A DNA stretch of 63,700 bases, filler included, from Craspedostauros australis (lineage: Eukaryota): the NCBI GenBank assembly GCA_030167865.1. It is 11 parts of 11 records of this genome, joined end to end, with 100 filler letters (N's around TTAATTAATTAA, not from the genome) between each part and the next. Parts side by side here need not be neighbours in the genome. Positions count along the whole stretch, not along the records: positions 46,861 to 57,809 come from JALAGF010004569.1; 10 more parts are not named here. One strand, written 5' to 3'. Position numbers and translations under genes: made by a program. The notes beneath the pieces were generated by a model. That model saw only the letters and a program-made list of their open reading frames with translations. It was not told the origin of the DNA and made no database searches. This document shows, piece by piece, positions 28,876 to 63,700 of this stretch; positions within the stretch are counted from its first letter, which is position 1; every line of letters starts with the position of its first letter.

Positions 28876-30684
28876 ATGCCGACCGTTTCGAACCAACAAC
28901 TCATTGCTGCTGCCAAGGCAGGTGATCAATCCGTGTTGAAGGAATGGAACAAGCAGCATGAAGGATGTGATACCAACTGGGTTACAGATGAATATGGTTG
29001 CACTCCCCTTCATTACGCATGCACCAACGGTCATCTTGATTATGCCAAGTACCTCATTGAATCAACTGGGGATGATATCAACAGCAAAAACAACCATGGT
29101 TTCACTCCCCTACATTGGGTATGCGGCAACGGCCAATTGGAATGTGTCAAGTACCTCATTGAATCATGCCAGGCAGATGTCAACGTCAAAAATACGAATG
29201 GTGACACTCCCCTTCATCGGGCATGCTACCAAGGCCGTTCTGAATGCGTGGAGTACCTCATTGAATCAACAAAGGCCGATGTCGACTGCAAAGACATGGA
29301 AGGTTCCACTCCCCTACATGACGCATGCGCCTATGGCCATCTGGAATGTGCCATGTACCTCATTGAATCCATGAAGGCTGATATCAACAGCAAAAACAAC
29401 TATGGTGACACCCCCCTTCATCGGGCATGCATCAACGGTCATCTGGAGTGTGTCAAGTATCTTGTTGAATCCACCAAGGCTGACGCCAACAGAAAAAACC
29501 TGCAGGGTGACACTCCCCTTCATTGGGCATGCTACAACGGCAGTTCTGAATGCGTGGAGGACCTCATCGAATCAACCCAGGCCGATATCGATATCAAGAA
29601 CAACAGGAACCAAACGCCCCTCGATATGATCAAAGCAGACGATCAAATCAAGATGATGAGATCGATCATCACTGGTCTCAATCACCGCAACTCAAAACTG
29701 CAGCTGCAAATGAACAAACAACGCCGCACAAACACCATCACAAACACCATCACAACATCATCCAAGCACAACAGCCCAGCCACCTGCACAACGACCAACA
29801 TCAGCATCAGCCAAGATCGTCGCAGCGCTGTTCTTACCGAGACCAAGCCAGACGTCACCTTCCTGTGTGGACAAGGCGATGAACAACAACCAATCAAGGC
29901 AAACTCCGGAGTCCTCATGGTCACCGTTCCATCCATTCAGACATTGATCGAATCTGGAATCCAACGTCAACGCTGGAATGACGGAACTGGTGACGAAACT
30001 AGTGACGAAACTGATGATGGCGCCGCCCCCATCCAAACAACCGTCCCTCTTCCCAATCATCAACCCAAACATGTCCGGCATGTCCTCCAATGCATCTACA
30101 CGGGGGAGATATCCTTCGATGATGATGTTCCTGACAACATTGAGACTGACGACAACGCTCATGACAATGCCAATGCTGTTGACGTAAACCAGCCAACCCC
30201 CACCCTCAATGGACGGGACGATTTACACCAGCTGATCCTTGTGGCCAACGAGTTCGGCTTCTGGCGACTCAAGCTTGTTCTTGAAGCGGAGTTGGCCCGC
30301 AAGCATCTCACCAAGGACATCATGACAGATACGTTGATATTCGCTCATCAACACAACTGTGTACTGTTGAAGGATGCCGCAACGAGGTTGGCAGCTGAAA
30401 GTGAGAAAGATATATTCACGCATCCAGATTTCAGCAAGCTGATTCTACAGCCCCAACTGATGGGAGGCATTCATGTCCTGTGCAGTGGAGGAGCCGAGAG
30501 TGATGAGGTTGATGATGAGTACAAGGGCATGTCCATGATGGAGTTGTACAAGGTTGTGGATGAAGGCGCGGGCACTTCGCGCGTGGATACATACATGGAT
30601 CGCGTCGCGTTGTTGGCTTTTGTGCGTTCCATCACATCCTCCAGAGTGATTGAGACTGACGGCACTGCCGAGGGCGAGGAGTGA
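28876..30684 (+). CDS. Ankyrin-repeat plus BTB/POZ domain protein
   Basis: Six full GxTPLHxAC ankyrin repeats (102-bp period) plus caps. BTB: PDVTFLCG...VLQCIYTG...LILVANEFGFWRLKLVLEAEL. Confidence 0.92.
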   Translation: MPTVSNQQLIAAAKAGDQSVLKEWNKQHEGCDTNWVTDEYGCTPLHYACTNGHLDYAKYLIESTGDDINSKNNHGFTPLHWVCGNGQLECVKYLIESCQADVNVKNTNGDTPLHRACYQGRSECVEYLIESTKADVDCKDMEGSTPLHDACAYGHLECAMYLIESMKADINSKNNYGDTPLHRACINGHLECVKYLVESTKADANRKNLQGDTPLHWACYNGSSECVEDLIESTQADIDIKNNRNQTPLDMIKADDQIKMMRSIITGLNHRNSKLQLQMNKQRRTNTITNTITTSSKHNSPATCTTTNISISQDRRSAVLTETKPDVTFLCGQGDEQQPIKANSGVLMVTVPSIQTLIESGIQRQRWNDGTGDETSDETDDGAAPIQTTVPLPNHQPKHVRHVLQCIYTGEISFDDDVPDNIETDDNAHDNANAVDVNQPTPTLNGRDDLHQLILVANEFGFWRLKLVLEAELARKHLTKDIMTDTLIFAHQHNCVLLKDAATRLAAESEKDIFTHPDFSKLILQPQLMGGIHVLCSGGAESDEVDDEYKGMSMMELYKVVDEGAGTSRVDTYMDRVALLAFVRSITSSRVIETDGTAEGEE

Positions 30685-32315: not shown

Positions 32316-33713
32316 GGCACCCGCAGCAGCGTCCTTGCTGCACAGGTCTTGGTTGCTGGCGAAGCTCCAACCGATCCGCTTGCCCAGAATTGGTCGAAAC
32401 TGAGATTGGGAGGTGTACATGCAACGCGGATCGCCGTTCGGAATGCAGCAAATCGATGACCGATGCGACGAACGATGCAACGGATGATGCGATGGCCGAT
32501 GCGATGGATGATCCGACGGCAGGAGCAAGGACTCTGGAAGGGTGGAGTGGAATGGAGTGGAGTGGAGTAAGATGAAGGACGTGTGCTGGATGGAGCAGGC
32601 AGTGCGGTAGAAATGAAACGACGGAGCAGATCGTTGGACGTTCGATGGTCAATGTTGTGGAACAATCCAATGAAATCCAATGCAATGCTGCCTCCTCTCG
32701 CGAAAACCGTCCAACGAATGGATTGCGTGGAGGAATGCCGCCTCTGGCCAATCCGCCTCTGCGCTCGTTTTCGCGCGATGTTCCAAAACTTCAAAATTCG
32801 AAAAATGCACGATCCGGAGCGACGCGGGACTCAGACAATCGATCCAAGAATCGGCGACGATCGAGGAGGCGTCGACCGTTCGGACTCGTTTCACGACTCC
32901 ATGTAGGCTTGTCTGATAGATGAGGCGTGTAGTGATCATTTCGAAACAGTTTTTTTTCACAGCCATCATCGCGAAACGGAACACTCATTTCAGGACTAAA
33001 CTGCCGACGTGTCAGATAGATGGGGCGTGCGGTACTCGTTGTTGGCGGTATTTGTGCGCAGACAGCTTCGAGGAATGGAACGACGAAACGCACAAGAAAA
33101 GAGGCCACAGATCGTGTTTTGTGCCATCGTGTTGTGCTTCCAGAAACAGAAAGAGGGTTGTGGACAGAAACAACCAAGAAAGCATCCAAGGGGGGCAGTT
33201 CAAAATGCAATAATTGGCTCTATTTCATAGCGTTTAAGTCATAAATTGCTTGTTTCCGCCTAGTTCTTATCCTCGACGGAATAATATGGAATTTTTGTTC
33301 TTTTTTGGATAATTGGTGCTTTCCCCCCAAAATTCGCACGAGTTGCTTTCGCTCTTCGTCATTGCTCCATTTCCCCACTTTACACTGTGTCGGTGTTTGC
33401 TGAGCGTGTTTTCGTCTCCGGTCGGCACAAAACAAGGCTGCTGTCTTGGGCCAGCACAGAGCACACAAAACTCACAACCCCAACACTCTCCACAGAGATC
33501 ATTGCTCCACAGAGCACTTCGTTCCTGTAACAATCACAATCACAACAACAACCACAACAGGTACACCAACATCACCACCGCAACAGTGTTTCGTCCATGG
33601 GTGGCTCCTGTATNNNNNNNNNNNNNNNNNNNNNNNNNNNNNNNNNNNNNNNNNNNNTTAATTAATTAANNNNNNNNNNNNNNNNNNNNNNNNNNNNNNN
33701 NNNNNNNNNNNNN

Positions 33714-35658: not shown

Positions 35659-36894
35659 GGTTGATGTGTGTGCGTGGTATCTGAGTTGAGTATTGATAGA
35701 CTAACGTGGAGGGAGGGCAGGGGGCGGATATTAGATATTGAAGCGTCTGCATTGTGGAGAGGTGCACGGTGCCATGCGTGCCGCACGAGTGAGTAGACCG
35801 AAGACGCCAGTGGGCAAAGGTATAGCGGCGGAATGGCAGGCAAAGATGCGGAAAAGAAGAGAAATGTGAGACAAAATGCCCAAGTTTGCTCCGGCGTTCT
35901 CCACTTGATTGGTATTGCGGGAGATCGCGTATCGCGGACTTATCACAGATGCATCGCACATCATCCATCGCTCTGGATCTCGTCTCGCGATGAGTGAAGG
36001 AGCTGCCGTGAACGGCTTGCACACAAAAAACGCAGTGGACCAGCGGAGGCGAGGACCGCAGGAGAATGACTATTTCCTATTCATCCTGGCACCACCCTCT
36101 GCATGTTTTTCATGTTGTGCCGTCCTGCACCCGGTCTTCGCGTTCTGTTTGATGAAGATACAAGACGACACATGGAATGGACCACGTGCTTGGCGTTGCT
36201 CTCGATCGGATCCATGCCGAAGGCCCATGGGCCCTTTGGTTTGTTGTATTGCCTGCGGTCCATGATCGCATCACTGGCACAGCTCCAGTGCACAAGCCGC
36301 ATCATAGAATTCGCCGCATCCAATCACATGAAAACAACCTTCCGACATACAGTATCATTGTGTATGCATGGTGATGTGCTAGTGCGTGTGTGGCAACTAT
36401 GCCTGGCGCAGCGCGGTGTGACTCACCGTGATGTTCGTGCTGTTTGCTGTCGCGGAATGGGAGTGATTGATTGCGTCTGCGTTTGAGCTGGAGCGGCCTT
36501 GAGATTTGTGAGAACGAAAATTGATGTTGGGATGGGACAACGGAGGTACGCAGAGAGTAGGTGCTTCCGCGGTGGTTGGCGGTTGTGCTCTGCAGGTGTG
36601 GACGCTGAAGACTGATCGTTTTTGAATCATTCTCCGCTTTCAGCCAACGTTTTCGTTTGCGTCATCATCTGCGCGTCTCGTGTCGCCGCGTGCTACATCA
36701 CAACAACGCGGCTCTGAACACCATCATGGCACCGTCGTGCCGTCGAAGCGCGCTGCAGTGCAGACCAGGGCCTGTTGTGCACAACAACAACACCNNNNNN
36801 NNNNNNNNNNNNNNNNNNNNNNNNNNNNNNNNNNNNNNTTAATTAATTAANNNNNNNNNNNNNNNNNNNNNNNNNNNNNNNNNNNNNNNNNNNN

Positions 36895-39627: not shown

Positions 39628-39727
39628 NNNNNNNNNNNNNNNNNNNNNNNNNNNNNNNNNNNNNNNNNNNNTTAATTAATTAANNNNNNNNNNNNNNNNN
39701 NNNNNNNNNNNNNNNNNNNNNNNNNNN

Positions 39728-40707: not shown

Positions 40708-43026
40708 CTAGTTTAGCAACGTGACTGTTGTCATGATTGATAACGCCATCACCAGCATGACGGATACCGTGGAAGGGATCATTGGTGAGAAAGCTGAGCT
40801 GGTAGGTGCAGTGGTGGAGGCTGAAGTAGGGTGCATCGAAGATGCCCCGCTGGGTGTGTTGCTTGGAGGGTTTGACGGCGAAGGCGACGGTGCGGATGGT
40901 TCAGGCGATGGCACAGCCGACGGCATCCTCGAGCTTCCGCCGCAGAACTCCAACGATCCCATGAAGAATTCATAGTAACCTTCGCAAGCGGCATCAGGAT
41001 ACTCTTCAGCCTCTTCGCTTGACAACCCTGGGAACATGATGAACGGGCATCCCTCACATTCGAACCAGTGTGGTGGTGTAGGCTCGTAGTCCAACGTGGC
41101 CTCACCCAATAGTTTTGTCTGCGTATCCACACGGATGGCGACCACGCCGTCGGCCTCCGAAACAGACAGTGGTGGATCAAATGTGATCACAGCTGTGAAA
41201 TCTTCGCTCCCTCTCGCCTCGATTGTGCCGGACGCGATTTCTGTCCAGGCACCAGGTATGACCCACGTGCTTGGACGGTAGAAGATGGTGTATGGTTGGC
41301 TCCCAGTCGATGGCAACACGAGCCTCATGCCCGTGATGTCGATGCCGCTCAATATCTCAATATCGTATCGCACAGATGCAATCCGACGTGTAAAGAAATC
41401 ACGTGGGAGACCTGCCGTCTCTCCACTGCGACATGAAGTAGTCGGTGCCTGTGTGGGAACGACAGATGGTTGGGTCGTTGGTGATACTGTCGTTGAAGGA
41501 GAAGCCGATCCAGTTGGCATCTCAGTGTCTAGGCCATAGCAGAAATCGAGTGAACCGATGAAGTAGGGGAAGTAACCGGGGTCGAAGCTGGGCGCACTGT
41601 CTCCAATTTCAAAACTGGCTTGTCCAGAATACACATCAAATGGGCAAAATGGACATGAGAAAATGTAGGATGGTGCGATGCGTGCGGAGCTCCGGCCTGA
41701 GAATTGAAATTGATTGGCCATGTCGATGCGGAAGGAAACAGTGCCAGTATTCGCTGGCAGGAGCAGAGGTGAATCAAACGGAAGGGTGGCCGTATAGTCG
41801 TCCGAATCTGTTTTTCCGTTGTTTCCCGATGCGATCTGAGTCCAATTGCCATCCACCTCCCAGGTATCTGGTCGGAAGAAGATCGTGTAAGGCATATTGG
41901 AAAAGCCAGGAGCCACGAAAAGCCGCATTCCGGTGATCTGAAAGTCCCTAATTGTACGCAAATCGAATCTGAAGGACTTCGTGATGTGATCATCGTCAAC
42001 CAAGCTTCGACGGGACCTTGTGTATTCCCACTCTCCGCACCCTGCTATTGGAGTTAGGCTGGGGAGTGCGCTTGGTGTGTTGGAAGGTGGTGCTGATACT
42101 GATGGCGCAAAAGAAACGGATGGTACAATGGATGGCGATTGGCTGAACTCCCCTTTCACGCTCACTGTCGCACACATTGGTGTCGCTGATTCATCATCGA
42201 TGTTGGAAACGGAAATGACGAGGCCATCCAAGAGCTTTGTAGATCCAAACTCAATGATCCTGTACGACGGTTGGGTCATATTCAGAATGGCCTCTAACTT
42301 GGATCTGCTCCCATCGCGTGGAGCCTGATCATGCGCTGATGTGACGAGCACTTGGTTTCTGCCCAGTGGCGAATCGGCATTGAAACCGATGGCTCGGTTA
42401 AACGCGACGTAGTAGTTGAAAAGGCTCTCGGGATCATCGATTCGGATGATGACATGGTAGCTTGTATCGGTGGGATCATAGTCTACCACACCACAGAGTC
42501 TCCCTTCGAAGTCGATGTTTTGGCCTCCCGTGAGTGTGACGGTCTGATCAGAATACCATCCCATTTCCCAACTCTTGGCCCCTTTGAGATGGGCGTGTTC
42601 GATTTCAGTTGGTTCCGTTTGGGATGTGATTAGATGTGCGGAACATGGCATGCCGTATGGTGAGTGCACGCGTTGTGGTTTTAGTTTTGGTGGGAGAGAC
42701 AAAACAAGCACGGCAAGGCAATTGCATTGGGGAGACGAGTCAGTGGCCACACGAGTGTGGCGGGAATAGCCCAACGTGCCCCGGTCGATGAACGTCATAG
42801 ATTGGGTGCAATTTCGATCAGCAATTCCCGACAAGTGCATACAAAGGGATCAGTGAGAGCTCCACTGGTTGAGTCCCCCAGATTCCGCCCGCTGCGTCAT
42901 GCAGAGTGTTCTTTCGATGATGAAATTGGCTGTCTCAGGATAAGGCATCGATCGGGCTCTGCATTAATGGACATGTGATCTGCCGCCATCAGATCTGAGG
43001 ATGCTTACCGTTGTAACCCGAGAGCG
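40708..43026 (-). CDS. Gametolysin (peptidase M11)-like protein, C-terminal part, with duplicated domain and GPI-type tail; exons 43009..>43026 and 40708..42581
   Basis: Splicing GTAAGC(43008)..AAAG(42582) restores YNG|AKSWEMGWY. Also YYVAFNRAIGFN, PS/PT linkers and a hydrophobic C-terminus. Catalytic HExxH is not in the contig. Confidence 0.75.
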
Positions 43027-43179
43027 NNNNNNNNNNNNNNNNNNNNNNNNNNNNNNNNNNNNNNNNNNNNTTAATTAATTAANNNNNNNNNNNNNNNNNN
43101 NNNNNNNNNNNNNNNNNNNNNNNNNNTGCAAAGGAGAGACCTCAAGACACACAGAAGACGATCCTATCTAGCGTTAGTG

Positions 43180-46760: not shown

Positions 46761-47099
46761 NNNNNNNNNNNNNNNNNNNNNNNNNNNNNNNNNNNNNNNN
46801 NNNNTTAATTAATTAANNNNNNNNNNNNNNNNNNNNNNNNNNNNNNNNNNNNNNNNNNNNCTTTTGCACCTCATCTTCACGCAGTAACACGCACATTTGC
46901 CGTGTTGTCTCCGTGTTAATTTCACTTGCAAATTGCATGAGACCTGTCATGTCTCTCTCATGCTCACAGTTCNNNNNNNNNNNNNNNNNNNNNNNNNNNN
47001 NNNNNNNNNNNNNNNNNNNNNNNNNACAGTAAACAAACACTCTCCTCACCAACAACAACGACTTGATCACTCTACGTTCTCGGTGCGGTATCCTTCACA

Positions 47100-50000
47100 C
47101 CCATCTACGATTACGTTCTAACAGAAGGAGTTGGAGGGTCCATCCCCATCCAATCCAAGGGCACACTGTCATGGACAATACTTGACAATGATGGCAGGCC
47201 ACTGCAGATTTAGATATCCAATGCTTACTACGCGCCACGGCTTCGCATCCATCTGTTCTGTCTGCAGCAATGGTCTGACCAAGGCCCTCACAATCACCAC
47301 TGCAGGCACCTGCGTACCTGCACGACATACGGCAACTACACTGTCCTGCGCTCCTCACGTTGCAAGGTCACAGTATATCATCATCCAGGCACCAACCTGC
47401 CTTTGATGTCTGTCGCCAACACCAAGTGACATGCGCCAGCATTCCTCACTACTTCCAGTCCTCCAAGCAACTCTGAACTTCTCAACATCAACAATGTCCC
47501 CGATATCATGATGGAGGTTCACGAAGATCCCAAGCTTGCCAAGTTGAGGCCCGATCCTCTCCAAGACAACAACACACTGGTCTGTGATCAGTTGGCAACA
47601 CATCCTGTTGGTGCGTCTGACGCACAAGGACAGCTACTCCGGTGGCATCATCACTTGGGACACCTACCCTTCCGTGTCTTGTGCAACATGGCGTCACACA
47701 GCATCATACCACGACACTTGGCCACGGCCAAGTTCCCTCTCTGCATCTATGGCAAAGCCGTCCGTCGGCACAGGCCAAACCATATCATGCACGTTGTCAA
47801 ACGAGCGCGATTCCCAGGGCATATAGTGTCAGTCAACCAGATTTTCTCCTGCCAGCCTGGGGTACTTCCGCAGCAAAACGGCACGCACACCTGGTCGCGA
47901 TACACATGCGTGACAGTGTTTGTTGATCAGTACCTTGGTATTGAGTACGTTCACTTGCAGCTCATCCAGTCTGGTGCCAACACACTGCAAGCCAATCAGG
48001 CTTTCGAGCGCTATGCTCACTCATTCGGTGTCTGCATACACCACTACCACCCCGACAAAGACAGATTCGCTGAGCAGCTGTTCCGCACGGCTGTCGCAGC
48101 AGCCAATCAAATCATCGCATTCTGTGGAGTCAATGCTCACCATCAGAATGGCGTCGCCGAGCGACGCATCCGCGACCTCCAAGAGTCCACTTGCTCGATG
48201 CTCTTGCATTCGCAGCACCATTGGCCTGATGTCATCCATCCGTCTCTATGGCTGTATGCTCTGCGTTACGCCTCTGAGATCCGAAGGAACGCTGCTCGAG
48301 AGGGAGGTATATCGCCACTCCAGCGATTCGCGCAGATCAAGGTCCAACCCTTGATGTAACACTTTCACACATTTGGATGCCCTGTATACATCCGCAAGGC
48401 CGCACTGCAACAGGGATCCCAGGTTCCCAAGTGGAGCAGCCGAGCCAAACATTGCCATATTCCTTGGCATGTCAGCTGAACATGCAAGCAGCGTACCTAT
48501 CGTTCTCAAGATCGACACAGGGTACATATCGCCACAGTTCAATCTGAACTTCGATGGCAGGTTCCAAACGGTCAAGACCAACCCACTAATGCGTCCTGTC
48601 GCATCGCAGTGGCAGCGTCTCACACACATCGACGAACCAGCCGAGCCCTCGCAACAGATTCGCTCCGAATGCATCACACGTGCTGTTCAGCACCAGCTTT
48701 CCGCAAGCACGCGTCCTCCAGGGACCACACACGCTGCACCTGATGCCAAGCCATTCCAGCTTGACATGCAGCACAAGATGCACGACCTTCCAAGGTCCAG
48801 CCTTCCAAGGCACAGTCTTCCAAGACAACCAGCAAGCTCACCTTCAGAGGGAGCTACGCCATCGCCACACAGAACGCATCACGATCTGCTACATCCGCAA
48901 CAGAATGTGCAGAGACCAACCAGACTACACTCCAACTCCAATCCTACCACACATACACTGCTCAATCCTTCCACGCATCTGACATCCTCAACATGAACTC
49001 GGGCGATCTGCACCCTATGTCATTCGCAGCAACACTCGCAGACGATGACACTATGTACTGGGGGCAAATGCAGAAGCAGCATGACTGTGACAAATTCATT
49101 GAAGCAATGCACAAAGAGATCGAAGACCACCAATCCAGACAACATTGGGAGGTCATTCAACGCACTCGTGTGCCAAAAAGGCACAAGATCCTGAAAGCTG
49201 TCTGGTCATTCAAACGCAAATGCAGACTTGCAACCGGCGAGATCTACAAGTGGAAAGCACGGCTACGCGTGCATGGAGGAGAGCAACAATATGGTGTCAA
49301 CTACTGGGAAACATTTGCACCTGTTGTGCAATGGTCCACCATCCAGACATTCCTCACCATGGCCGTCCAACAGCACTGGCACACTTGCCAAATCGACTTT
49401 TTGTTCTGGAGTTCCCACAAGCGGATGTGGAATGCGACATCTTCATGCAAGTACCTCAGGGGTGCAACATGGACGGAGACAGCAGGTCTCACGTTCTCCA
49501 ACTCAAGAAAAATCTGTACAGCACCAAGCAAGCAGCATTGGTATGGCATCGGCATGTGGTTGACAGCCTGATGCAGCATGGATTCCGGCAAAGCCAAGTT
49601 GACGAATGCCTTCTCTGCAAGGGCAACACATCCATTCTGCTGTACGTTGACGACACCATCATCATTGGCCCACGCAAACACGAGATCGATGACATCATCG
49701 AGCGCCTCAAGGCACGGTTCACACTAACCAACGAAGGCAACATGGATGATTATCTGGGCGTTCACATCCAACGTACTGATGACACCATCACACTCTCACA
49801 ACCGCAACTCATAGATCGAATCATACGAGCAGCCAAGATCGATCCTGACTCACCAGGACGAACCTATTCGACGCCAGCCGTCAAACCGCTCCTATACAAG
49901 GACACTGGTGGCCCTGCTGCCACTTGGCGATTCGAATATCAGTCAGTTGTGGGGATGCTCAACTTCCTCACATGATCAACGAGACCTGATATCTGCTTCG

Positions 50001-50635
50001 CAGTCCATCAATGCGCACGCTTCATGGCTCATCCGATGAAGTCACACAAAGATGCCATCGAATGGATTGTACGATACCTTGCTCACACATGGGATATGGG
50101 ACTCCGCATCTCACCTACCCAATGACTCCATTCACTGCTATGCTGATGCAGACTTCGCAGGAGGCTTCACACAAGCCAACAACGACCCCAACACGGCAAA
50201 AGTCGTACCGGATATGTCATCCTGTATGCAGGATTCCCCATCATATGGAACTCCAAACTGCAAACAGAAGTCGCACTCAGCACCACAGAAGCCAAGTACG
50301 TGGCTCTCAGCCAAGCTCTATGAGAGGTTATACCCATCATACACCTCATCAACGAAATGAAGCAGCACATATCGTCATTCGACACTTCTCTGCCAACAGT
50401 TCACTGCACAGCATTTGAGGACAACTCCGGTGCCCTCGAACTCGCAAACGCACCCAGAATGCGTCCTCGTACCAAACACATCAATGTCAAATACCATTAC
50501 TTCCATGAAGCTGTCAGCAAAGGGCTCATCACCATCGAACAGGTCGACACGTTGGACCAGATGGCCGATATATTCACCAAGCCCTTGGCACGTTCACTAT
50601 TCAAATCTCTGCGATTGCGACTATTGGGATGGTAA
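47100..50635 (+). pseudogene. Degenerate CoDi-type Ty1/copia pol (integrase-RT-RNase H)
   Basis: WHHHLGH, HQNGVAERRI, WKARL...YWETFAPVV, LYVDD, YADADFAG, FEDNSGA...RTKHINVKYH, QMADIFTKPL. Multiple frameshifts. Confidence 0.95.
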
Positions 50636-50668
50636 GCACGGTCCGCTCGTGCCACCGACAAGAGGGAG

Positions 50669-50858
50669 TGTGCAGATTAAGTGCCAATTCACGAATCTGG
50701 CCGAATCCGAACGATGATTGTCAATGGGCAGACGATACCGCACAAACGACGAGTAGGATCCACACTGAGCAAATGACCACCCTGCACGGACATAATTTTC
50801 AGAACAGATAGGTTTCACCCCATCTCCCACACTTCCGGTCACGTGAAAAACCTTCACA
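50669..50858 (+). repeat. 3' LTR (190 bp) after a PPT
   Basis: PPT AAGAGGGAG (50660-50668); termini TGTGCAG...CTTCACA. Confidence 0.75.
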
Positions 50859-51099
50859 AAGATTTGATTGTGCAGAAATATTTGCATATGAGAAGACACT
50901 TCTTCAACCACTGACCTCCAACCAAAACAAGAAACCTGATAGAGAATGGCTTGGGTTTGAGAGAAGTGCAAACCGAATCATCTTGAAATACATGAATACG
51001 ATCAACCAAGAGGTGCAGACAGCAGAAGAGAGAGAGAGAGAGATAGCTTAAGTAATCATATTTTGGTCTTACATCCACAACAACAACATCCATCATCAT

Positions 51100-51768
51100 T
51101 AGCAAAACAACATCAATTGTATGAACATCAATCATCCGTCGGCATAAGGCAACATGCCAATGATTGTTCTTAGCATAGTCGGCAAACCGAGGAAGAAACA
51201 ATTCGATATTGCTCAGGTACGGTAAGGCAATGGCATAGAAGTAGGTGTAGAAAGTACAAACAATGCAGGAGATGCAGATGTTGTCCATACTTAATCTCAG
51301 TTCCATGTCACAGAAACGTCCACGATGTGCCAGACAGTACAGCATGAGCAGCAATCCCATTTCATAGGATACCAAGTATTGGTTCTTGACCTGAATGCAT
51401 GCAGGGTCATTCTCACCAGACACTGCCTGGAACTTTGGCCAGAGACGGTCAGCCAAGCATTGGAGGTAGCATGCTTGGAAGCGGAAGTGAGGAATAGCTT
51501 CGGTGTCAGCCAATTCTAAGATGGCAATGTTTCTGTTCGTATACAAAGGAGGAGGACCCAATGGACGGAGATAGAGCTGCTGCATCTCTAGCACATGGCA
51601 GCCTAATGCAATAGCGTGACTGTAGTACTCCACAAGAATGGTGACACCAGTGTAGTTCAGACCCTGCACATCAATCTGCGAAAGCTGATTCACAGCCTCG
51701 ACAAATCGATCGTGGGCTTCTTGCAATGCCTGCCTCTCTGGAAGGGAGTTCCAAATACGCAGCACCAT
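51100..51768 (-). pseudogene. Truncated PIF/Harbinger-like transposase (N-terminal HTH region)
   Basis: HFRF...L..LADRL...LLLMLYCLAH...DME...ISCIV pattern; DDE core not seen. Confidence 0.6.
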
Positions 51769-52139
51769 TAGAAAGAGAAGGACCAGCTACAGTGCGTGGA
51801 GAAAGGTTGTATATGCGAAAGCGTGGTGAACACGGAAGAATTGAAGAAACCACGAGTATAGCATCAAGTGCAGTGTGGAAGAAATCTGTCATGCAGGTAC
51901 CAAAAACCGGAAGGAGGTGATGTGTCGACAGAGGCATCAGCAAATGTGATGTTCTTCAGCACGAATCAAACCGAACGTGACTAAATTAATCGCACAGTTT
52001 TGGCGCGAACGCAATATCGCTCGAGTTAATCCAAGCAGTATTCTGTCACGAATCAGTCCTGTGCGGTTTTCGTGCTCGAGATTCAATGCGAACCGCGACA
52101 TGACACAGGGGCCGGGGGAACAGAATGCGAAAGTCCTCT

Positions 52140-53509
52140 AATGGAACACACGAAAATGAGCAGAATTTCTGGAGGAAATTTGCAATCGACGATTTCTGAG
52201 AGAATTAGAACATCGTCCGTCCATCCATCAATGGTTGATAATCAGCAACTACACACAGGAAAAGGGCACCAAACACTGCACTTACTACGCCGCCAGGGTG
52301 ATCAATCCATCAGGTGGAGTTGGAGATGTTTGGTGTTCTTTGTTGTTCTAATAGGTTGTGTCCAATTGATGATTGAGTTTGGATTATGAGAACATGATCT
52401 CATCATTCCAAAGATGGTGCCTATTGCACGAGTTTCTAATGTGCTGCTCGATTACCTCGTGGTTTATCTCGCAGTCTTTCCTAAAACATTGCCCAAGATG
52501 GCATGTTGATTTACACGATATCNNNNNNNNNNNNNNNNNNNNNNNNNNNNNNNNNNNNNNNNNNNNNNNNNNNNNNNNNNNNTCTGTTTGATCATATATG
52601 GATTGATCCGTCTACGTCGACGAGGTGCATGCATCACCTCTGACAATGTTGTTCTGGATCCTAAATGTTGTTGCCACGTGCTCAATGATGCATTTGGCAT
52701 TGCTAGACAGGTCAGCATACCATGACTAAAATATAATCTCGATTCCGAGGATCACAATGACCGATCCTCTGACGTCATACGATGATGTCAGTGCCTACGT
52801 CAGGTTCGATGACTGTAGTGACTGAATCTCAATCGTGTAATCAAGACTCACTCGACTATACTCTCAAATCGAGTCGAATCAAAAATAATGAATCATGTTT
52901 CAGTCATGGGAGATAGGTACCTAATTTCGATCTAGATGTTGATAATGGTACCAAGAGAATCTCGAGGTACTTCCCAACTAAACCTCAGATGACGATATCA
53001 TCTGACAGGTTGCTGCATCACCAATGGAACATGACATCTGGAGAGCAGAAGGACGCCTACTGGCATTGACAGGATGTCATCGTGTCACCATGTCGACATC
53101 TGTCTCCAAGTCAGAGCAAGAGGCGAAGATCCGATGACCGAAGGACATCAGGATCATGGATATGGGAGATGAACTTCAAATGGTAAGTACTCATGGAGTA
53201 GGAGCCAGTACTGAATGAACGGAGTGTTGAATGTGGAGTACGCATCGAACATGGAGTATCGTGCAGCACGAAGTACACGATACTAAGACAAAGAGAGAGA
53301 GAATACAAAGAGCAGCGAGAGAGCATCTCGCACACCGACTCATAGTCAGAGACCAAATCTACAAAACAGATTGAAGCGCCAAGATCATCTGGCAAGAGAA
53401 CGGACACCGAGAGGATCGGAGTGCCAACGTAATGAAATAGCAAACGAACAACTATTAACCAACACCATCTTCCACGATCGTAGGTTACCGTGAGCGTAAC
53501 TTGCCAACA
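52140..53509 (+). repeat. Family A LTR copy (may start at TGTCACG, 52044); contains an N gap
   Basis: 53150-53509 matches 21410-21762. 52140-52230 and 52965-53155 are inverted matches to 55186-55277 and ~54960-55152. Confidence 0.7.
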
Positions 53510-55277
53510 ACTTTCAGGTTGAACGTGAGTTGGTGATGGAAGTTCACGATGTGAGTTTTGTATTCGTTGCTTACTGTGCTGAGGATCTGCATGATCATCT
53601 CCTCTTCGCTGATCGTGTATTCGACATCGTGGAGGCGGGAGCGTAGAAGCTCGAGCCATGTGATGTAGATGGCGGGGTCCATGTCTCTCTTCATCTTTTC
53701 ATTGTTGAATTGACGCTTGAGTTTGATTTTGGTTGCTGCATCGGATGGTTGGAACTTCTCCGCGAGAATGTTCCACACTTCATGTGGTAATCATCAGAGA
53801 CGCACTGGTTGATGTATTGGATGGCCTGCTTGCCCTTTCCCTTCTCTGCGTCTATCATGAGGATTAGATCGCTGAAGCAGTTGGCTGCCAGCTCATGGAC
53901 TTCCTCCATCGACTCCTTGTCTTTTCCTCTGGCTTCTCCGATCTCACTCATCGTTGGGATCTTCGTCTTGCCCAACATCACATCTATTGTCTTCTGCGTA
54001 CGCACATACGCCTTCGCTTGGGACTCCCAGGCATTGTAGTCCTCCTGACTACCACTGAACAACGGCGCCTTGATGCGTCGCTTGTTCATTTTGGCTGATG
54101 TCGCCATGTTGCTTCGTTGTTTTGTTGATGGTGCGCGCACGCTCCTGATTTCCGTTTGTTTCTGTGTGATGACTTTTTCAATTTTCGCTCATGTTTGCGC
54201 GGAGATGTGTTTCGTCACAAATTCTCCTCTGCGTGCCGTCTCACTTTTTCCGTGTTGCTTGGCTGTGCGAATGCTCTTCGTCACACCAGTCTCTTCTTGT
54301 TTGATCGCCTTGAGAATGCTCTTCTGCACGAATCATAGTCTCGCAAACCATTCCTCGTTGGTCTCATTGGTTGTGCTTCCTTCTTCGTTAGAGAGGACAG
54401 TGGGCGCACCCACTTCCTTCTGCTGTTGAAGTCAAGTCTCACTCGCACCTTCTTCTTGCTTGATAGCCGGATTGGACAGAGGGATGTCTTTCAATTCCTC
54501 TTCCTTGCTCATTCAGCCTACTGCTCTTGAAGGATGTTGTCTCCCTCGTACGATCCAATCCTCAGGCTTGCCCTGATCTATCGTTTATAAACATGTTGGC
54601 AAGTCTTGTGAACAGATACTTTGCGATTGTGGAAGACGGTATTGATTGTTACGATTATGTTTGCTATTTCATTACATAGACACTCCAATCCTCTCAGTGT
54701 CTCTTGTTCTCTTGCCTGATGCTCTTGGCATGTCTCTCTTGTTGGTCTGACTATGAGTTGGTATGAAAGATCCTCTCCCGCTGTTGTTCATGCTCTCTCT
54801 CGCTCTCTCTCTCAATGTTGCCTATTCACACCATACAATATTCCGTACTTGACATGTACTCCGCATGCAGTACATACTCCGTCGTTTTGTTCTCTGTTGG
54901 CCCATTACTCTGTGAGTAGTCGCCAATACTCCCACACTGCATTCCTCCTTGCATACTCACGATCTTGATGTCCCTTTAGTCATTGAATCTTTGCCTTCTT
55001 GATCTGATGTTGAGACGGATGTCGACATGGTGACACAATGGCATCTTGTCAACATCAGCTGTTGGTTCCATGGTCCTTCTGATTCCACATTCCATTGATG
55101 ATGCAATGGTCTGGCAGATGATATTGTCATTTGAGGTTTAGTTGGGAAGTACATCAAGCTTCGCTCGATGCCATACGTTTGCAGTGATGGATGGACGGAC
55201 GATGTTCCTGATTCTCTCAGAAATCGTTGATTGCAAATTTCCTCCAGAAATTCTGCTCATTTTCATGTGTTCCATTT
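53510..55277 (-). pseudogene. Decayed family A copia: 5' LTR remnant (54594-55277) and truncated gag (ATG 54512 to 53510)
   Basis: Clear paralogue of the 21845 gag (MATSAKMNKRRIKAPLFSG..., WNILAEKFQPSDA) with stops and frameshifts. Confidence 0.92.
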
Positions 55278-55324
55278 CCACTGTGATTTTGACCATCACA
55301 GCATACTATTGGCACTAATGTAGT

Positions 55325-55903
55325 TGTACCGTCCGTACATATATAAGAGAATAACGGGTGAACGATGCACATATACATGTACATCTTGACATGTACTCAC
55401 ATGTACATCTCGACAGCCCGGTCGGCAGCAGCGACGTTGCGACCAAAAAGCACAATCCCTTCGTCAACATCTACAAGGACGGCAAGGAGGATACCCTGCG
55501 GCGACAGATCCAGCGCACGAAGAACCGTGCCACCAACATCCTCCTCGAGAGCTCGCAAATCGACCAAATGGAGGATGATGATCAAGGCCTGCGCGTGGAC
55601 CAGCTGCTGCAGGAAACGGATGAGATCCTGGAGGAGGCCACCCTCGAGATCAAAAAGTCCGAACACAATCGCAACAGCTGGCATATCCGCAAGGCCATCT
55701 CGCTGTGTGACGACGATGATCTTGACGAAGATTGACAATTCTCACAGAATTCCTTACTTCTTACTTCTCTACTAATCCTATTAGTCAAATACTGGTCGGG
55801 GGGCTGTCTTCGGACAGCACTCACAAATAAACAACAAGAGCTCCGACCAGGGCACGAAACAACGGGCCAATACATCTTTCGTAGTTACTTGCACTGTTTG
55901 ACA
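55325..55903 (+). repeat. Putative 5' LTR (~579 bp) of copia family B
   Basis: TGTACC...TTTGACA termini, AATAAA at 55826, immediately followed by a PBS-like sequence. No second LTR in the window, so the left end is tentative. Confidence 0.6.
55391..55735 (+). CDS. 114-aa acidic helical ORF within the putative LTR
   Basis: Uninterrupted ORF with mostly C/G-ending codons, similar to the adjacent gag; no recognised family. Confidence 0.55.
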   Translation: MYSHVHLDSPVGSSDVATKKHNPFVNIYKDGKEDTLRRQIQRTKNRATNILLESSQIDQMEDDDQGLRVDQLLQETDEILEEATLEIKKSEHNRNSWHIRKAISLCDDDDLDED

Positions 55904-55924
55904 GATTCAGAGTCGTGCTTACCA
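55904..55924 (+). promoter_or_regulatory. Primer binding site complementary to the 5' half of tRNA-Gln(CUG)
   Basis: GATTCAGAGTC is the reverse complement of the anticodon arm GACTCTGAATC. GTGCTTACCA is the reverse complement of the D-arm-like TGGTAAGCAC. Confidence 0.75.
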
Positions 55925-55979
55925 ACACTGAGCAACACCCAACACCACATCACCTTTTACCATCGTACGAGTTACCACC

Positions 55980-57377
55980 ATGGACCGGCCAACCAACATC
56001 AACACCTTCAACAAGATCATCCAAGAGCTGGTACAGCTCGATGACGAAGAGATGGCGTTCATCGGCGAGAAACTCGGGAGAATCGATCGTGTCATCCGCA
56101 ACTCGGACGCCACCATCGTGGCGGCCTTGGCGCTCTCGCCAACGCTGTCATCAATCAACATCACCAACATCCTGCGCATCTTCGCATACGCAAGGTCCAA
56201 CACCATCACCGCACGCACCGATTGGGCAGCAATCGACTTGTTCAACGAAGCGAACAGCTACGAACCACCGGAAGTCAGCACGCCAGTTGCGAACGCTGCT
56301 GCTCAAGTGCGATCGGAGATGGCGATCAGGGAGGCAGCCGCAGCAGCGGATGCCACTGGGACAGCGGGTCGCGAAATCACCGTCAGCTCACCGAGCCGCG
56401 CGAAACGCACCCCGCGATCACCACGAACCCCACGGACTCCATCAGGATGGAAGTTCGACAAGATCAGCATGCCGGAGGCACCCGAATTCACCGGGAACAA
56501 CAGCGACTGGTATGACTGGAAGATCGCGTTCAAGCGACAGCTGGTTACATCCAGATACGCCGCGTACCTCGATGTCGACAAGCCATCGCATTTCGCAGAG
56601 GACATCGACGCGCAGCTCTACACTGTCCTGCACACCAAGACAGAGAAGGGATGCGCGGCATTCATCGTGGAAGCACACGAACCGAACGGCCATGACACAT
56701 ACCAGGCGCTCATACGCAACTATGAATCCGTCGACCACAAAGCTGAGGCCATCGCAGAGGAAGAACAGAAGATCGCCGAACTCCGTTACGACGGATCAGA
56801 GCCATTCCCAGTATTCGTCAACGCTTTCTCCAAGTGCATCCGTGTCATGGAGCAGAACGGAAAGCAGATGACCGACCAGCAGAAGATCGCGAAGTTCTTT
56901 CGCAACATCACCGACGACCGCTTCACAAGCGAGATGTCCAGATTCCGCAACACGGAACACTCCTTCAACGCAATTCGTGAGGCGTTCATGCAACATGACG
57001 CGCTCCTCACGAAATCGGAAGGACACTACTCTCCCAAGCGCAACCGTCGCTACCAACAGAAGGACACCAAGGATGACCGCAAGAGGCTGCGCGAATCCTC
57101 CAAGTGGGATCGCAAGGGCGCCGCATCGTTTCGGTTGCCGGACTCCGTCTTCCGTCGCATGCCGGTGAGCACTCAAGTGCTCCTCGTCGAAGCATCTCGT
57201 CACTTCCGCACCACTGGGAAACCAATCGATGAGGAAACCCTCAAGCGCAACAAGCCAACAGAGTACGCGCGCAACCTGGAGTTGCCCATGACCCAGCGAG
57301 GACCCAAGCGGCCTCGCACGGGCGATCACAAGACCGGACGACCTGGCACCCAAGGACCATGGAACGCCGGTTCTTGA
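55980..57377 (+). mobile_element. gag of copia-like (CoDi) family B
   Basis: PEFTGNNSDWYDWK, and YDGSEPFPVFVNAF...MTDQQKIAKFFRNI (UBN2-like); basic C-terminus; intact 465 aa. Confidence 0.85.
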
Positions 57378-57809
57378 CAATCAAAGACGGGCACAACTCG
57401 CCGTCAGTCGGAGATTGTCATCCACCTCAAACCCCGCGACTGTAGGGGGGCGAGCGTGACGACCGCAGCGGGAATGCCCGGACGTGCACGTCCGGTGGCA
57501 CCACAAGAGTCCCGTCCGTGCACAACCCACCCGACAGTGGAGCACTGCATCCGAAGGGCAAGAGTAACGAACGATAGCCAAGGCTTTATCATCCTAGACT
57601 CAGGGGCGGACGGAGACATCGTTCATGCGTCGGGCTGGGAGGTGACCCACACACACCAACAAGAGTTTCGTGCCCGAGGGGCGACGATCAACTCACCAAT
57701 CGAGACATTCCAGATGGTCGACGCCGTGGCAGCATACGAGCCCCCATCAGGCGGCGTGATCCTCATCAAAGCAAACTACGTGGCTCTCGACAAGCATCCA
57801 CAGCAGACG
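57378..57809 (+). mobile_element. pol N-terminus (aspartic protease), in frame with gag after a single UGA
   Basis: No stops from 57378 to the contig end. IILDSGAD active site and VDAVAAYE...VILIKAN, a CoDi-type protease. Confidence 0.85.
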
Positions 57810-57909
57810 NNNNNNNNNNNNNNNNNNNNNNNNNNNNNNNNNNNNNNNNNNNNTTAATTAATTAANNNNNNNNNNNNNNNNNNNNNNNNNNNNNNNNNNN
57901 NNNNNNNNN

Positions 57910-59471
57910 CACTGTGGGTAGCCATAAGCCGGTCAAACGTAATGCGTTGTCCGCGCTTCTCCAGGCTCATCACAACGCCGTGGTTGCTGATGTCGAAGCC
58001 GCTCTCAAGCGCTTTGTTGATGCTGAGAAGGTTCACCCACAAATTGGGCACGAACTTCACGTGCTTGAGGAGGATGGTTGCGGTGGTNNNNNNNNNNNNN
58101 NNNNNNNNNNNNNNNNNNNNNNNNNNNNNNNNNNNNNNNNNNNNNNNNNNNNNNNNNNNNNNNNNNNNNNNNNNNNNNNNNNNNNNNNNNGTCATCCCCT
58201 CGTCGTTGTTGGTCAGGTGGCACGAGGCACCTGAGTCGCCCAACCAAGTGTTTGCCTCATGGCGGTCTGGGGCGAGTGTGATGCGGCGTTCTTCGACGCC
58301 GTCGATGTCGCCGACCACCATTGCCATGTCTGGTTGCGGGTTTCTCTCGCTGTAGACGGGGAGTTCTGGGAACTCACCTGGGCCGCGAACTCCGTAGTGG
58401 CCTGGGTGGTACTTCCACATGACTTGGAGTGCTCCACGCGAGGCCAGGCTCCCGATGAGTCCATGGTGGATGGCTGGCAGCTGCTCCTTCTCCAGCCTTT
58501 CGTTGATGAACGGCATGTTCTTCATGACGTTGAACGGGGTCATCATCCCGATCTCGCGTAGGAGGAAGTAGAGGGTGCGAGCATCCGCGCAAGTGCGTCT
58601 GTCTCTCGACTTGTACTCCTTCACTGTGTCGAGGCATAGTAGGGCAAGCTCGCAGCGCACACTGTCAGCCGGCATGGCGTTGCTCAATGAGTATCGCACT
58701 GCGAGTGCGAGGGACTCCTCCTTTGCGAGCATTGCGCGGCGTTCATCGCGTTCTTCGTGGGTTGTCGGTTTCACCACGTCCGTTCCTTCCGGTAGATCGA
58801 TGAGGAATGGCTGGGCTGGGCAGTCGACGCAGTACGAGTAGATGTACCCTTGTTTGAAGCATAATGGACATGATGCCCATCCTTGGTACATTGCGCGCGC
58901 TGCTACTTCAATCGCCTTCTCGATGGGAGGCTTGTTGGTGGAAAGCGAGAAGATAGGCTCTCTGCAGATGTCTTCCGCTCCGATCACCATTGCCACTTCA
59001 TTGGTAGACTCCTCGTCGGTGCTGACGAGGTCTTCATCGTAGATGACTTCATCGAAGAACCCGTCGTCATCGGTGGACTCGTCTTCGGACGGGAAGAGTT
59101 CGCGGTTGATGCGCTCGGCGGCGACCGCCGGTGGTCCGTAGTGACCATACACCCCTGGGTGGTGGGCCGCCCGCTCTTCAGCTGTCCACTCGGAGCCTTG
59201 GTTTGGCTCTTCGTTGCCTTGGTCGGCCATCTCTTCGTCGGTGGACGTGAGGGCGAGGTCTTCGGTGGTCTCCTCTTCGGGAGGCATCATGGCGTAGTCG
59301 TTGCTCATGTTTTTCTTGATGTTCGCAATTTCTTGGGTTGTTACGAGTCTTGGGTTGGTCACATTTTTGACCTCAGTCGAATCAAGATCGAACTCGTTGG
59401 TGAGGAAGCACAGCATTTCCGTGCTATCCATGGACTTGTCGTCTTCGGGCAACCAGATGGGCTCCTCGATC
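57910..59471 (-). mobile_element. Ty1/copia fragment: long gag-protease spacer and protease
   Basis: WLGDSGASCH and LKHVKFVPNLWVNLLSI. Spacer contains CPLCFKQGYIYSYCVDC. Confidence 0.88.
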
Positions 59472-59571
59472 NNNNNNNNNNNNNNNNNNNNNNNNNNNNN
59501 NNNNNNNNNNNNNNNTTAATTAATTAANNNNNNNNNNNNNNNNNNNNNNNNNNNNNNNNNNNNNNNNNNNN

Positions 59572-60409: not shown

Positions 60410-62552
60410 CTATAATATGTTACATACTCGTACACTAAGAGCACAGTCCACTACTCCATGTACTGCTTCGAGCTTGCTAGATGGAGCAGATTGGACTTCC
60501 TCTCTTCTGGGTGCGTCGCCATTGGACGCCTCTTCGTTGATTGTTGCGTCCTCCTTGCCGTCATGCCCGCATTCGTTCCGCTTGGCCTCCTGTCCTGTTT
60601 GTGTTGATTGGATGCTTTGCTCCGTCGCTGCAGAAGGGTCCATCTCTTTGCTGCCATCGTGTGTTGACGAAGACCCCATTACCTGACTGGGATCATCTTG
60701 TGCTGAACATGATCGAGTCTTTGCGCTGGTCTCGTCTTGCGGAGTGGGCACTGCAGATGCAGATGCCGTCTCCGAAATGATGGTTGTTTGTGAAGACTTC
60801 TTGGTGCTGGCATCGGCTTCTTTCGTTTGTGCGTTGTCTCTTGCACGTCCCATGGTGCTGAGAACCCCAATGGTGGCCATCGATGCAACAGCCGGGGCCA
60901 ACAGCTGTGATGAGGTGATGCCCGCCTTCTGCTGACCTTTGCTCTCCTCAGACACCACTGCGCCTTGTTTTGCCCGTGAGTTTGTGGCTGTGGCCGTCGT
61001 GGATTGGGCTGGGTTGTCCACGATTCCATGGGATCCATCTTGTGGCACACAATGCCATCGCCGCTCTCACCGTCGTACACTTCGAAGCTTGTGCTGTCGT
61101 AGTTCACAAGGTCGATGACTGGTGCTGCACCAGCTGGGTTGGTGGTAGACTTGTCGGCGCCAGTGCTGTGTGCTGAATCGCGTGATGCAAGGGCGTCGTC
61201 TCTGTCACCAATCCATGGATCCTCATACGAATGCTTCTCCTCCATGGAGTCGCTGATAACGATGACGCCATTGGAATGACTCTGCGATGGTCGATTCTGC
61301 TGGTGATCATCGTTACCCTTGTTGTCACTGGAGCAGTGGTCATCTTCGTCGTCGAGCACAATGATCTCTTCGACATTTCGCGAGCGGGAGACGCTCTCTG
61401 CTGTTTTTTTTTGCTCGATGGAATAATTCCCAGGTGACGCACCACCCTGGCTTCCGTGGTCGGTGACATCAATTGGGTCATGTCCAGTAGGAGCATCACC
61501 AACATCAGCATTGTTGCAATCCTTTTCTGCATTCATCAACGACTTGGTCATGATTGCTGCGCCGACCCCAAGGACAACTGCTGCACCTGCGGCTACTCCA
61601 GTCGAGGCGTTCTTGGTGACATCGTCCAATGACGACTTCGCTGAGCTGATCGACTTGTGGGATGAGTTACACTCGATGTGACCAGTCGAAACAGTTGCTG
61701 ATGCTTCTTGAGCGGCGTCGGCAACATCGTTTGTTGAGGCCGCAGACGTGTTGTTGGTGTAGCTGCTATTGACAGGATTCGAGTTGGCGCTTGCGCTCGT
61801 CACCACGCTGACTGCAGGGCTGCCGTCAGCTGTGGCTTTGGCTGTGGTCGTGGTCGTGGTTTTGGCCGCAGCTGCCACAGATGCCGCCGTAACGACTGCT
61901 GCGGCCACGCCAATAGCTGCAGTGGTTTTCAATGTGTTGGCGTCGTCGTCCTTGTTGCTGTTGTCATCTTTCCCGAAGCTGCGATCGCTCTGAGTTGTGG
62001 ATGGCCTCGATTGGTCTTGGTGCCCGACCAGTGCCCCAACCTTTTCCAAGTCAGAGTCCAACAGGCTGTTCAAGACGGAGTCATTGAACGACGAAGGGCG
62101 TTCGTTTTCTGCAGAGCTGGAAGACAACTTCCTGGTGGAAGCTGCACCAGATCTCACCGACCGTTCATTCTTGGAGACGGTGAATTCGGAGGCTGTGGAT
62201 TGACCGCTGTTCGTTCCTCGCGCAGGCATGAGAATATCCATGCCCTGGACAACTGGGATGTCATCAGATGAACGTACGGTTTCCACGAGGTGGCCGACTA
62301 TCACTGGGTTGGCTGCACCGGCGACTAGTTCTTGCTCTTCAGATCCTGGTTGACATGCGTCATTGCTGGCAGATTTGTCCTTGTTGCTGGTTTCGTATGA
62401 ACTACCAGCAGCCAGTTTGGCCGCAGCAAGGTCCATGATGTCTTCGAGAGGAACCGGAGGAGGCCTGTTGGTCTCTGTGAGAGGTTCGATGCCTTCTCTC
62501 TGCATCTGCAAGCGAATCATTGCTGCAATCTTCGCCTCGTAGTCAGATGATG
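60410..62552 (-). CDS. Low-complexity Ser/Thr/Ala/Asp-rich hypothetical protein, 5'-partial, with apparent frameshift near 61050
   Basis: Open from the contig edge. Composition continues in the second frame (60410..61048) after ATTGTGTGCCA. Confidence 0.6.
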
Positions 62553-62652
62553 NNNNNNNNNNNNNNNNNNNNNNNNNNNNNNNNNNNNNNNNNNNNTTAA
62601 TTAATTAANNNNNNNNNNNNNNNNNNNNNNNNNNNNNNNNNNNNNNNNNNNN

Positions 62653-63700
62653 GATGTGCTTCTCTGGTTCTTTGTTCTCGTCCTGCATCGACAATCCGAT
62701 GTCGATCGCTGGTGATTCGGTAATGATTGCATTCATCCTGTATAGTCCTGTTGTGCTATAATGAGTGATCTCAATCTCTCCTTCATCTGCAATTTCTTCA
62801 TCATCTGTAGTTTCGTTGTTGGAGTCGTCGATCTCCTCGTCGCTGAGTTCATCACTGTCTTCGTTGGATGATGGATCGCTTTCATATCCTTCTTCCTTTC
62901 GACCTCGTTCGTTGAAGTCTGCGAGCTCACGTAGAGCTCTGGGAATACTCTTCCCTGTAGTTGACTTGGGATTGGTTTCTCCCTTCCTGCCTCGTGCTTC
63001 GTGACGTCGGATCCTCTCCTTTCTAGCTATGTCACGCTTGTTTGGCTTGTTCGGTGGAGGTCTGGATGGTGTACCTTGTGTAGACCTCGCTGGTGTGTTC
63101 GGAGGAGTGACGCCTGTGTCATCGTCGGCTTCGTCGCCGGATGGTAGGATCTCGTCATCCTCATGATTGGATTCGCTCCGATCTTCCTCGTCGTTATGGA
63201 TTAGTTGAGTCACTACTCCATCGTCCTCATTATCCTCATCGTCGCTGTCCGATAGGATATAGTATCTGTTGCTGTCAGCGAAAGAAACTCTCTTCGCTTC
63301 CGATGTTTGACGCGTTGCCGTCTTTGGCGTTGCTCCCTTCCGTCCGATGGTTGTGAAGCCGTCTGCGTCTGTTGTTCCTGTTTCGTTGGATATGTTCGGT
63401 GCTGGTGCCCAGCCACGGAACTGTCCGTATGATTGATTGAGCCACTTGATGTCGCGTGAGCANACGAGTGACTTNGTCGATGGTCTGTACATGTTGTAGA
63501 CCCCTGATGCNTGTTGGTGTGCATATCCGATGAACACCATCTCTTCTCCTCTATTCTTGAGTTTAGCGGTGATCCCGCCGTAGGTAGTCTTCACAACACC
63601 CACCTCTCCGAAAGTACGGAGTGCATCCGCGTATGGTGGATCGTTGCCGAAGAATTGTCGATGTGGTGACTCCTTTTGATTCTTCGCTACGGTGATGTTG
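62653..63700 (-). mobile_element. Ty1/copia pol fragment: integrase end, SH3-like domain and linker to RT
   Basis: LRTFGEVGVV...KLKNRGEEMVFIGYA...VYNMY...SRDIKWL, followed by an acidic linker ending EPEK. Confidence 0.88.

Follow-up and report, generated by a model that had tools for sequence, protein, structure and literature searches.

An in-frame UGA followed by CAAUCA separates gag from protease

The DNA analysed here is a 63,700-nucleotide stretch from Craspedostauros australis (referred to below as the window), in which one contig, spanning 46861-57809, carries at its end an element that, judged by its sequence, is the 5' part of a Ty1/copia-type long terminal repeat (LTR) retrotransposon. 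The gag gene of this element and the beginning of its protease (PR) share one reading frame, interrupted by a single UGA codon that is directly followed by CAA UCA. The interpretation that we believe somewhat more than we doubt is that UGA-CAAUCA would act as a site of programmed type-I readthrough, and both the arrangement of the frames and the context of the stop make a leaky stop at this junction likely. The features concerned are the following (ORF, open reading frame).

55980-57374, plus strand: gag ORF of 465 codons, with its ATG at 55980 in the context ACCACCATGG; relatives found by phmmer
57375-57377, plus strand: in-frame TGA (UGA), the sole stop in 610 codons
57378-57383, plus strand: CAATCA, Gln and Ser codons, fitting the type-I readthrough hexamer CARYYA
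57378-57809, plus strand: 144 open codons in the gag frame, comprising a linker and the N-terminal part of the protease, ended by the contig
57375-57420, plus strand: predicted hairpin with an 8-bp stem (57375-57382 with 57413-57420) enclosing the stop itself, indistinguishable from chance
57411-57431, plus strand: EIVIHLK, 12 codons past the TGA, resembling in a weak alignment the linker motif of relatives (V.V.LK / K(K/R)I.F.L)
57474-57476, plus strand: first ATG after the stop, in frame and 33 codons downstream, from which a product with Pol alone might be started
57594-57608, plus strand: LDSGA, an aspartic-protease active-site-like motif (D-S-G) in the gag frame

In the frame opened by ATG 55980, 465 sense codons, one stop and 144 sense codons make up 610 codons. 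An earlier, sequence-only reading of this DNA had claimed that gag and protease lie in a common frame broken only by TGA 57375-57377 and then CAATCA, and translation of the frame confirmed this. The junction DNA reads ...GGT TCT TGA CAA TCA AAG... and its translation, ...PWNAGS*QSKTG..., fits the junction peptide NAGS-x-QSK which that reading had named; its statement that no ATG lies between the stop and 57474 is likewise correct, as 57378-57480 holds a single ATG in any frame, at 57474. Its label “gag-pol” says too much: gag and the start of the protease are present in one frame, the rest of Pol is absent, the contig ending at 57809.

Both of the other forward frames contain stops between the TGA and LDSGA. 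When P0005 and P0006, two protein relatives of the gag, were used as tblastn queries, each gave one alignment, 56460-57809, which crosses the TGA, and because these alignments cross it unbroken, the downstream frame is the coding frame. With a common frame and the other frames closed, PR would thus be reached only past the UGA, barring a downstream start or splicing. As to whether a frame of this length might be open anyway, 432-nt frames were open in 744 of 7936 cases sampled in the window, and in 0.8% of 5000 shuffles of the post-stop segment. The copy has neither a frameshift nor a second stop in its 610 codons, and its stop is positioned in the poorly conserved linker that leads from the gag core to the protease. 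The observed/expected ratio of CpG is 1.21 in gag and 1.03 downstream; as it is not depleted, there is no sign of decay by deamination.

In the scenario that we propose, UGA 57375-57377 would be the normal end of Gag, at which most ribosomes would terminate to leave a 465-residue Gag. A minority of ribosomes would place a near-cognate amino acid at the UGA, favoured by the CAA UCA context, and, staying in frame, would go on into the protease and, were the copy complete, into the rest of Pol. The leakiness of the stop would then set a high Gag to Gag-Pol ratio.

The context of the stop is rare in the window

The type-I consensus is UAG-CAR-YYA, and according to a passage of the review by Firth and Brierley (PMC3542737), UGA and UAA too are stimulated to readthrough when CARYYA follows. 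The stop studied here is directly followed by CAR-YYA (TGA CAA TCA, 57375-57383), and the ORF goes on as coding sequence in the same frame for 144 open codons that show homology to the protease region of relatives. The claim that this is a leaky-stop signal of the tobacco mosaic virus (TMV) type is therefore well founded as far as the hexamer is concerned: CAATCA fits, and UGA is among the stops reported as stimulated in that same passage.

Such a context is seldom met. Counted on both strands and in all frames, the window has 2338 TGAs, and just 3 have CARYYA directly behind them, as do 8 of 3377 stops of any kind; CARYYA itself occupies 288 of the 124,728 hexamer positions (0.23%). There are five CARYYA hexamers in the 1830 nt of the element, the only one in frame being that after the TGA.

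The best relative of the gag ends at nearly the same place

Relatives of the gag were sought with phmmer (HMMER) among 1.84 billion cluster representatives at E<=0.001; the protein collections used include neither the source species nor its close kin. The search returned 38 relatives, of which two reached E<=1e-10; identity nowhere exceeded 30%. Ranked first was P0001 (436 aa; E 1.8e-28 in the representative search), a complete gag-only ORF recorded on two contigs; its 90%-identity cluster contains another member of equal length, an ORF of an MMETSP transcript. Residues 11-334 of P0001 align with residues 14-361 of the window protein (28% identity, E 3e-36), and past the aligned part P0001 has 102 residues left to its own stop, versus 104 in the window gag. 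Anchored by eye on a shared LP motif, the ends of the two proteins lie about 12 residues apart. Longer forms of P0001 (764-2180 aa) were looked for and none was found, which is weak evidence; no close protein relatives of 335-1068 aa were found by word index either.

A similar picture is given by the relatives as a group. In a crude projection based on HMMER coordinates, 21 of the 38 are gag-only, with ORF ends falling at query positions 440-520, the stop here being at 466; a further 11 end earlier than query 440 and are probably fragments. Eleven gag-only relatives were aligned; in nine of them, 3-21 residues separate the ORF end from a conserved K(K/R)I.F.L motif upstream, the motif being followed by acidic residues. 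With its acidic tail, this motif has the look of a conserved end of Gag, and might mark a recoding site in the clade concerned.

The segment past the stop, in turn, is homologous to the PR regions of P0005, P0006, P0010 and P0032, and LDSGA aligns with the IDPG, IDSG, FDTG and LDEG of relatives.

Some observations concern the relatives themselves. In the gag-only clade with that motif (P0015, P0019, P0030, P0038 and others) four ORFs begin with Met-Gly (MGN.., MGA..), which suggests, from sequence, that Gag may be N-myristoylated there. For another gag relative, P0007, the database entry is a partial hypothetical protein assigned to a Marinobacter metagenome-assembled genome, on a contig of 1452 nt; most likely this contig comes from a eukaryotic retroelement and was binned with the bacterial genome by mistake.

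Programmed readthrough and other explanations of the stop

The sequence-only reading had already proposed programmed readthrough. The proposal is partly supported: in its favour are the stop with its frame and its hexamer, a context seldom met by chance, a copy free of other lesions and the nearby end of gag in P0001; it is weakened by relatives with a single ORF and by the missing Pol. Several observations speak against it. In six of the 38 relatives (P0005, P0006, P0010, P0023, P0032 and P0034) gag runs into protease as one ORF, and since such fused relatives exist, it is plausible that the ancestor had a single ORF and that the nonsense change is recent. The EIVIHLK look-alike, weakly aligned as it is, sits past the TGA and the frame continues beyond it, like that of the fused relatives, which cuts moderately in the same direction. 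The element is known here as a single copy, cut 144 codons past the stop. No stimulatory RNA structure stands out at the junction, the fold of 57366-57530 having a z of -0.93, with 28 of 200 shuffles folding equally well or better. The bases preceding the stop are CU and not AA, and it is AA that is reported as favourable to readthrough in yeast (as cited in a passage of PMC10085805). The copia elements for which the literature consulted describes a UGA at this junction, Tca2 and VdLTRE5, lack CARYYA. A single substitution would turn any of 45 of the 610 codons into TGA, including 8 CGA, 11 GGA and 10 TCA, so that a nonsense change comes easily. Finally, the case was picked from a very large scan; together with the lack of CARYYA in Tca2 and VdLTRE5, this holds our estimate back.

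It is conceivable, then, that the stop is a one-off nonsense change, from a single substitution, or a base-calling error, in a family that normally has one Gag-PR-Pol ORF, and that CAATCA is there by coincidence. The fused relatives, the frame that runs past the linker motif and the number of codons one step from TGA all agree with this, as does the location of the element on an unplaced repeat contig within a low-grade, gap-containing chain; moreover, 1-in-400 coincidences are to be expected when very many windows are scanned. On the other hand, a random stop would be followed by CARYYA with a chance of about 0.13-0.24% only, the stop stands in the gag-PR linker and nowhere else among the 610 codons, the copy bears no other lesion and no CpG depletion, and its nearest relative, P0001, is gag-only and almost equal in length. 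A nonsense change would need both to hit the linker (about one fifth of the 610 codons) and to meet the 1-in-400 hexamer, whereas for a designed stop any one of a few known contexts would do; design is therefore favoured even if designed stops are given a low prior among copia families. We thus consider a chance nonsense change or error unlikely, though far from negligible.

The stop might also be genuine and fixed without being read through, Pol being produced separately, whether through reinitiation or leaky scanning at ATG 57474, with the help of an internal promoter, or by way of a spliced RNA. This ATG is indeed in frame and upstream of the protease motif. However, the 32 codons between stop and ATG are open and include the stretch resembling the linker motif (weak evidence in itself), the presence of CARYYA would be left unexplained, and a retroelement Pol made without Gag would need other means to reach the particles. 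The Tca2 junction can be quoted on the side of a separate Pol, as it had a minor promoter and gave no readthrough by itself in yeast according to a passage of PMC2194720, yet on balance we find such an arrangement improbable. Still more remote, to the point of being hardly conceivable, is the idea that UGA is a standard sense codon, read as selenocysteine or under a variant nuclear code. No support for it was found, without a search for a selenocysteine insertion sequence (SECIS), and it is at odds with the long ORFs of the window with Pfam domains, which are delimited normally under the standard code, with TGA being the commonest stop triplet of the window (2338 occurrences) and with the host proteins found, which are consistent with ordinary genes ending at UGA.

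Frameshifting at the junction was dropped, as the protease lies in the gag frame. A short GT..AG intron that would remove the stop was set aside too, the sole nearby candidate seen by eye being about 38 nt long, which is not a multiple of three.

Returning to programmed readthrough, we infer that the stop would be fixed in the family, that the hexamer would be active in the host and that readthrough would occur at all. As for the broader idea of a diatom-dwelling Ty1/copia lineage that would use UGA-CAA-UCA, a short signal of the TMV type, to set the ratio of Gag to Gag-Pol, belief and doubt are in our opinion evenly matched.

Relatives place the element in a Ty1/copia-like lineage

The assignment to a Ty1/copia-like lineage follows from Retrotran_gag_2, RVT_2 and protease/integrase-like blocks in relatives. 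In Pfam, the window gag has no match at E<=0.1 and the post-stop segment has none. Retrotran_gag_2 is recognised in P0001 (35.4 bits) and P0032 (27.6 bits, the cut-off being 27), and RVT_2, a reverse transcriptase domain of copia type, at residues 1213-1395, the C-terminal end, of P0043, a protein of 1546 aa from the 90% cluster of P0005. In P0005, P0010 and P0032, gag is followed by a D-x-G protease block and then by an integrase-like block, the latter giving weak PDB profile matches to retroviral integrases (E 0.12-0.4). In the element itself, the aspartic protease D-S/T-G downstream of gag is represented by LDSGA, and the protease is cut by the end of the contig.

The cut at 57809 leaves the element without integrase, reverse transcriptase (RT), RNase H and 3' LTR. 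There are no direct repeats of at least 40 nt in the contig, as one would expect of an element that lacks its 3' end; neither is there in the window a tRNA gene with which a primer-binding site could be matched. Upstream of gag we noted a TATA-like TATATAAG at 55340-55347 and, just 5' of gag, two overlapping ORFs of 125-136 codons at 55358-55775, the ORF tested having no Pfam match.

Search for further copies

A search of the window by blastn and tblastn with the element, and by tblastn with the 38 relatives, returned the studied locus only. No public sequencing run containing 56900-57809 was found, RNA runs included. In metagenome, viral and prokaryote collections, queried with the window protein, alignments A3 and A6 and P0007, no usable DNA of relatives was found. 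One metagenome locus (L001) and one viral locus (L002) matched residues 14-67 only, at 38% identity, and were treated as chance matches; L001 is dense with same-strand ORFs and has a phage-like look.

In-frame stops between gag and pol in other systems

In-frame gag stops are already established in retroelements (Tca2, VdLTRE5, Tj1/Tosmo and murine leukaemia virus, MuLV). One of them is Tca2 (pCal) of Candida albicans, also Ty1/copia, with gag and pol in one frame and a UGA between them (in a passage of PMC2194720), and the sequence-only reading was right to cite it as a UGA case. The same passage reports the Tca2 junction alone as insufficient for readthrough in S. cerevisiae. Tca2 differs from the present element in being without CARYYA (PMC3441728), and a pseudoknot has been proposed for it, whereas the junction studied here has no significant structure. 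VdLTRE5 of Verticillium dahliae is another Ty1/copia element with a UGA at the gag-pol junction, an organisation that its authors call very rare for copia (PMC3441728); they sought CARYYA there and found none (PMC3441728), while the present element has it.

Other cases are Tj1, Tosmo1-3 and Tcry1 of fission yeasts, in which, as a passage of PMC10085805 describes, an in-frame TGA lies between Gag and Pol in a conserved immediate context, the stop of Tj1 being reported there as essential for transposition. These belong, however, to Ty3/gypsy (Tf1/sushi), and their context GAA-TGA-CT is, in that account, strictly conserved across five elements, whereas we have a single copy. In MuLV, a gammaretrovirus with a type III site, suppression of a gag stop in the same frame likewise yields Gag-Pol, but this needs UAG, an 8-nt spacer and a pseudoknot (a passage of PMC3542737 covers both points). 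The present site does not resemble type III, as its stop is UGA and its fold, no better than shuffles, is unremarkable, with no explicit pseudoknot search made. Type I viral cases share with it the fit of CAA UCA to stop-CAR-YYA (again in a passage of PMC3542737); they differ in that they mostly have UAG and occur in replicase or coat-extension genes of plant RNA viruses, while here we deal with a UGA, in a retrotransposon of a diatom-like host, known as sequence only. Ty1/copia elements of diatoms have been described as CoDi elements in Phaeodactylum and Thalassiosira, the groups CoDi1-7 resting on RT phylogeny; the present element has no RT on its contig.

A full-text literature search, mostly shallow, found no report of gag-pol readthrough in a diatom element and none of a retrotransposon using CARYYA. 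What would be new, if the interpretation is true, is a copia gag stop in a new host group and in a context for which the literature searched gives no retrotransposon example.

What readthrough in this element would mean

If true, a six-base signal of plant viruses would also be used by a cellular retroelement; we found no earlier retrotransposon with the type-I motif and no earlier proposal of a recoding signal in a diatom. Programmed readthrough would thereby be extended to diatoms, in which, to our knowledge, translational recoding is essentially unstudied. It would further strengthen the case that, within one copia lineage, gag-pol can switch between a single ORF and a stop-separated layout. 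In practical terms, diatom engineering would gain a leaky-stop cassette of nine bases, compact and transferable, with which expression ratios could be tuned. Should the stop instead be a one-off nonsense change, what we have is an ordinary dead fragment of a retrotransposon on an unplaced contig.

The host genes of the window look diatom-like

Calling the element a diatom retroelement, as the sequence-only reading did, is reasonable: host genes of the window match diatom proteins, and the gag relative P0023 comes from the diatom Mayamaea pseudoterrestris. The cluster of one relative also includes a marine eukaryote transcript. An alpha/beta hydrolase gene at 18093-19526 on the minus strand has 209 relatives, and among the best 120 of these 209 every organism name is that of a diatom, at identities of up to 40%. 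By their sequences, the host genes of the window thus look diatom-like. Besides the hydrolase, host-type genes on other contigs encode a 2OG-Fe(II) oxygenase (4386-6905, plus strand), a protein with WW plus CD225 (16830-17858, plus strand) and an ankyrin-BTB protein (28735-30681, plus strand).

The contig of the element and its surroundings

The whole stretch is made of 11 contigs chained through identical linkers, N44-TTAATTAATTAA-N44, each of which places a stop in all six frames. As the contigs are merely joined by linkers, neighbours are not physically linked and no feature can be read across a joint. The positions of the linkers are as follows.

21306-21405, 24531-24630, 33614-33713, 36795-36894 and 39628-39727: assembly linkers, first five
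43027-43126, 46761-46860, 57810-57909, 59472-59571 and 62553-62652: assembly linkers, other five
57810-57909, no strand: of these ten, the linker N44-TTAATTAATTAA-N44 that truncates the studied element

The contig of the studied gag also contains a decayed second copia-type pol (47430-49972, plus strand), consisting of overlapping ORFs in differing frames, with gag_pre-integrs (E 1e-4) and two pieces of RVT_2 (E 3e-10 and 1e-27). As its ORFs overlap in different frames, it carries frameshifts; by BLAST it is unrelated to the gag at 55980. Between the two there is a large imperfect inverted repeat, 52140-53480 with 54624-55276 (69% identical over 564 nt and 95% identical over another 95 nt), its end lying some 700 nt before gag begins. 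A short ORF between its arms (53694-54188, minus strand) has a product with a gag-like F-S-G...W...W pattern. The inverted-repeat region could be another element, or a breakpoint at which the studied element inserted.

Long ORFs without a Pfam family at the thresholds used lie on the minus strand at 7975-10923 (983 aa), 40711-42849 (713 aa), 60679-62520 (613 aa) and 58191-59452 (420 aa), and tblastn with the gag, PR and integrase of the relatives gave no match to these four. On a separate contig, an ORF at 62653-63699 (minus strand), open at the window end, contains a retroviral polymerase SH3-like domain (PF25597, E 1e-6) and is another copia-type pol fragment.

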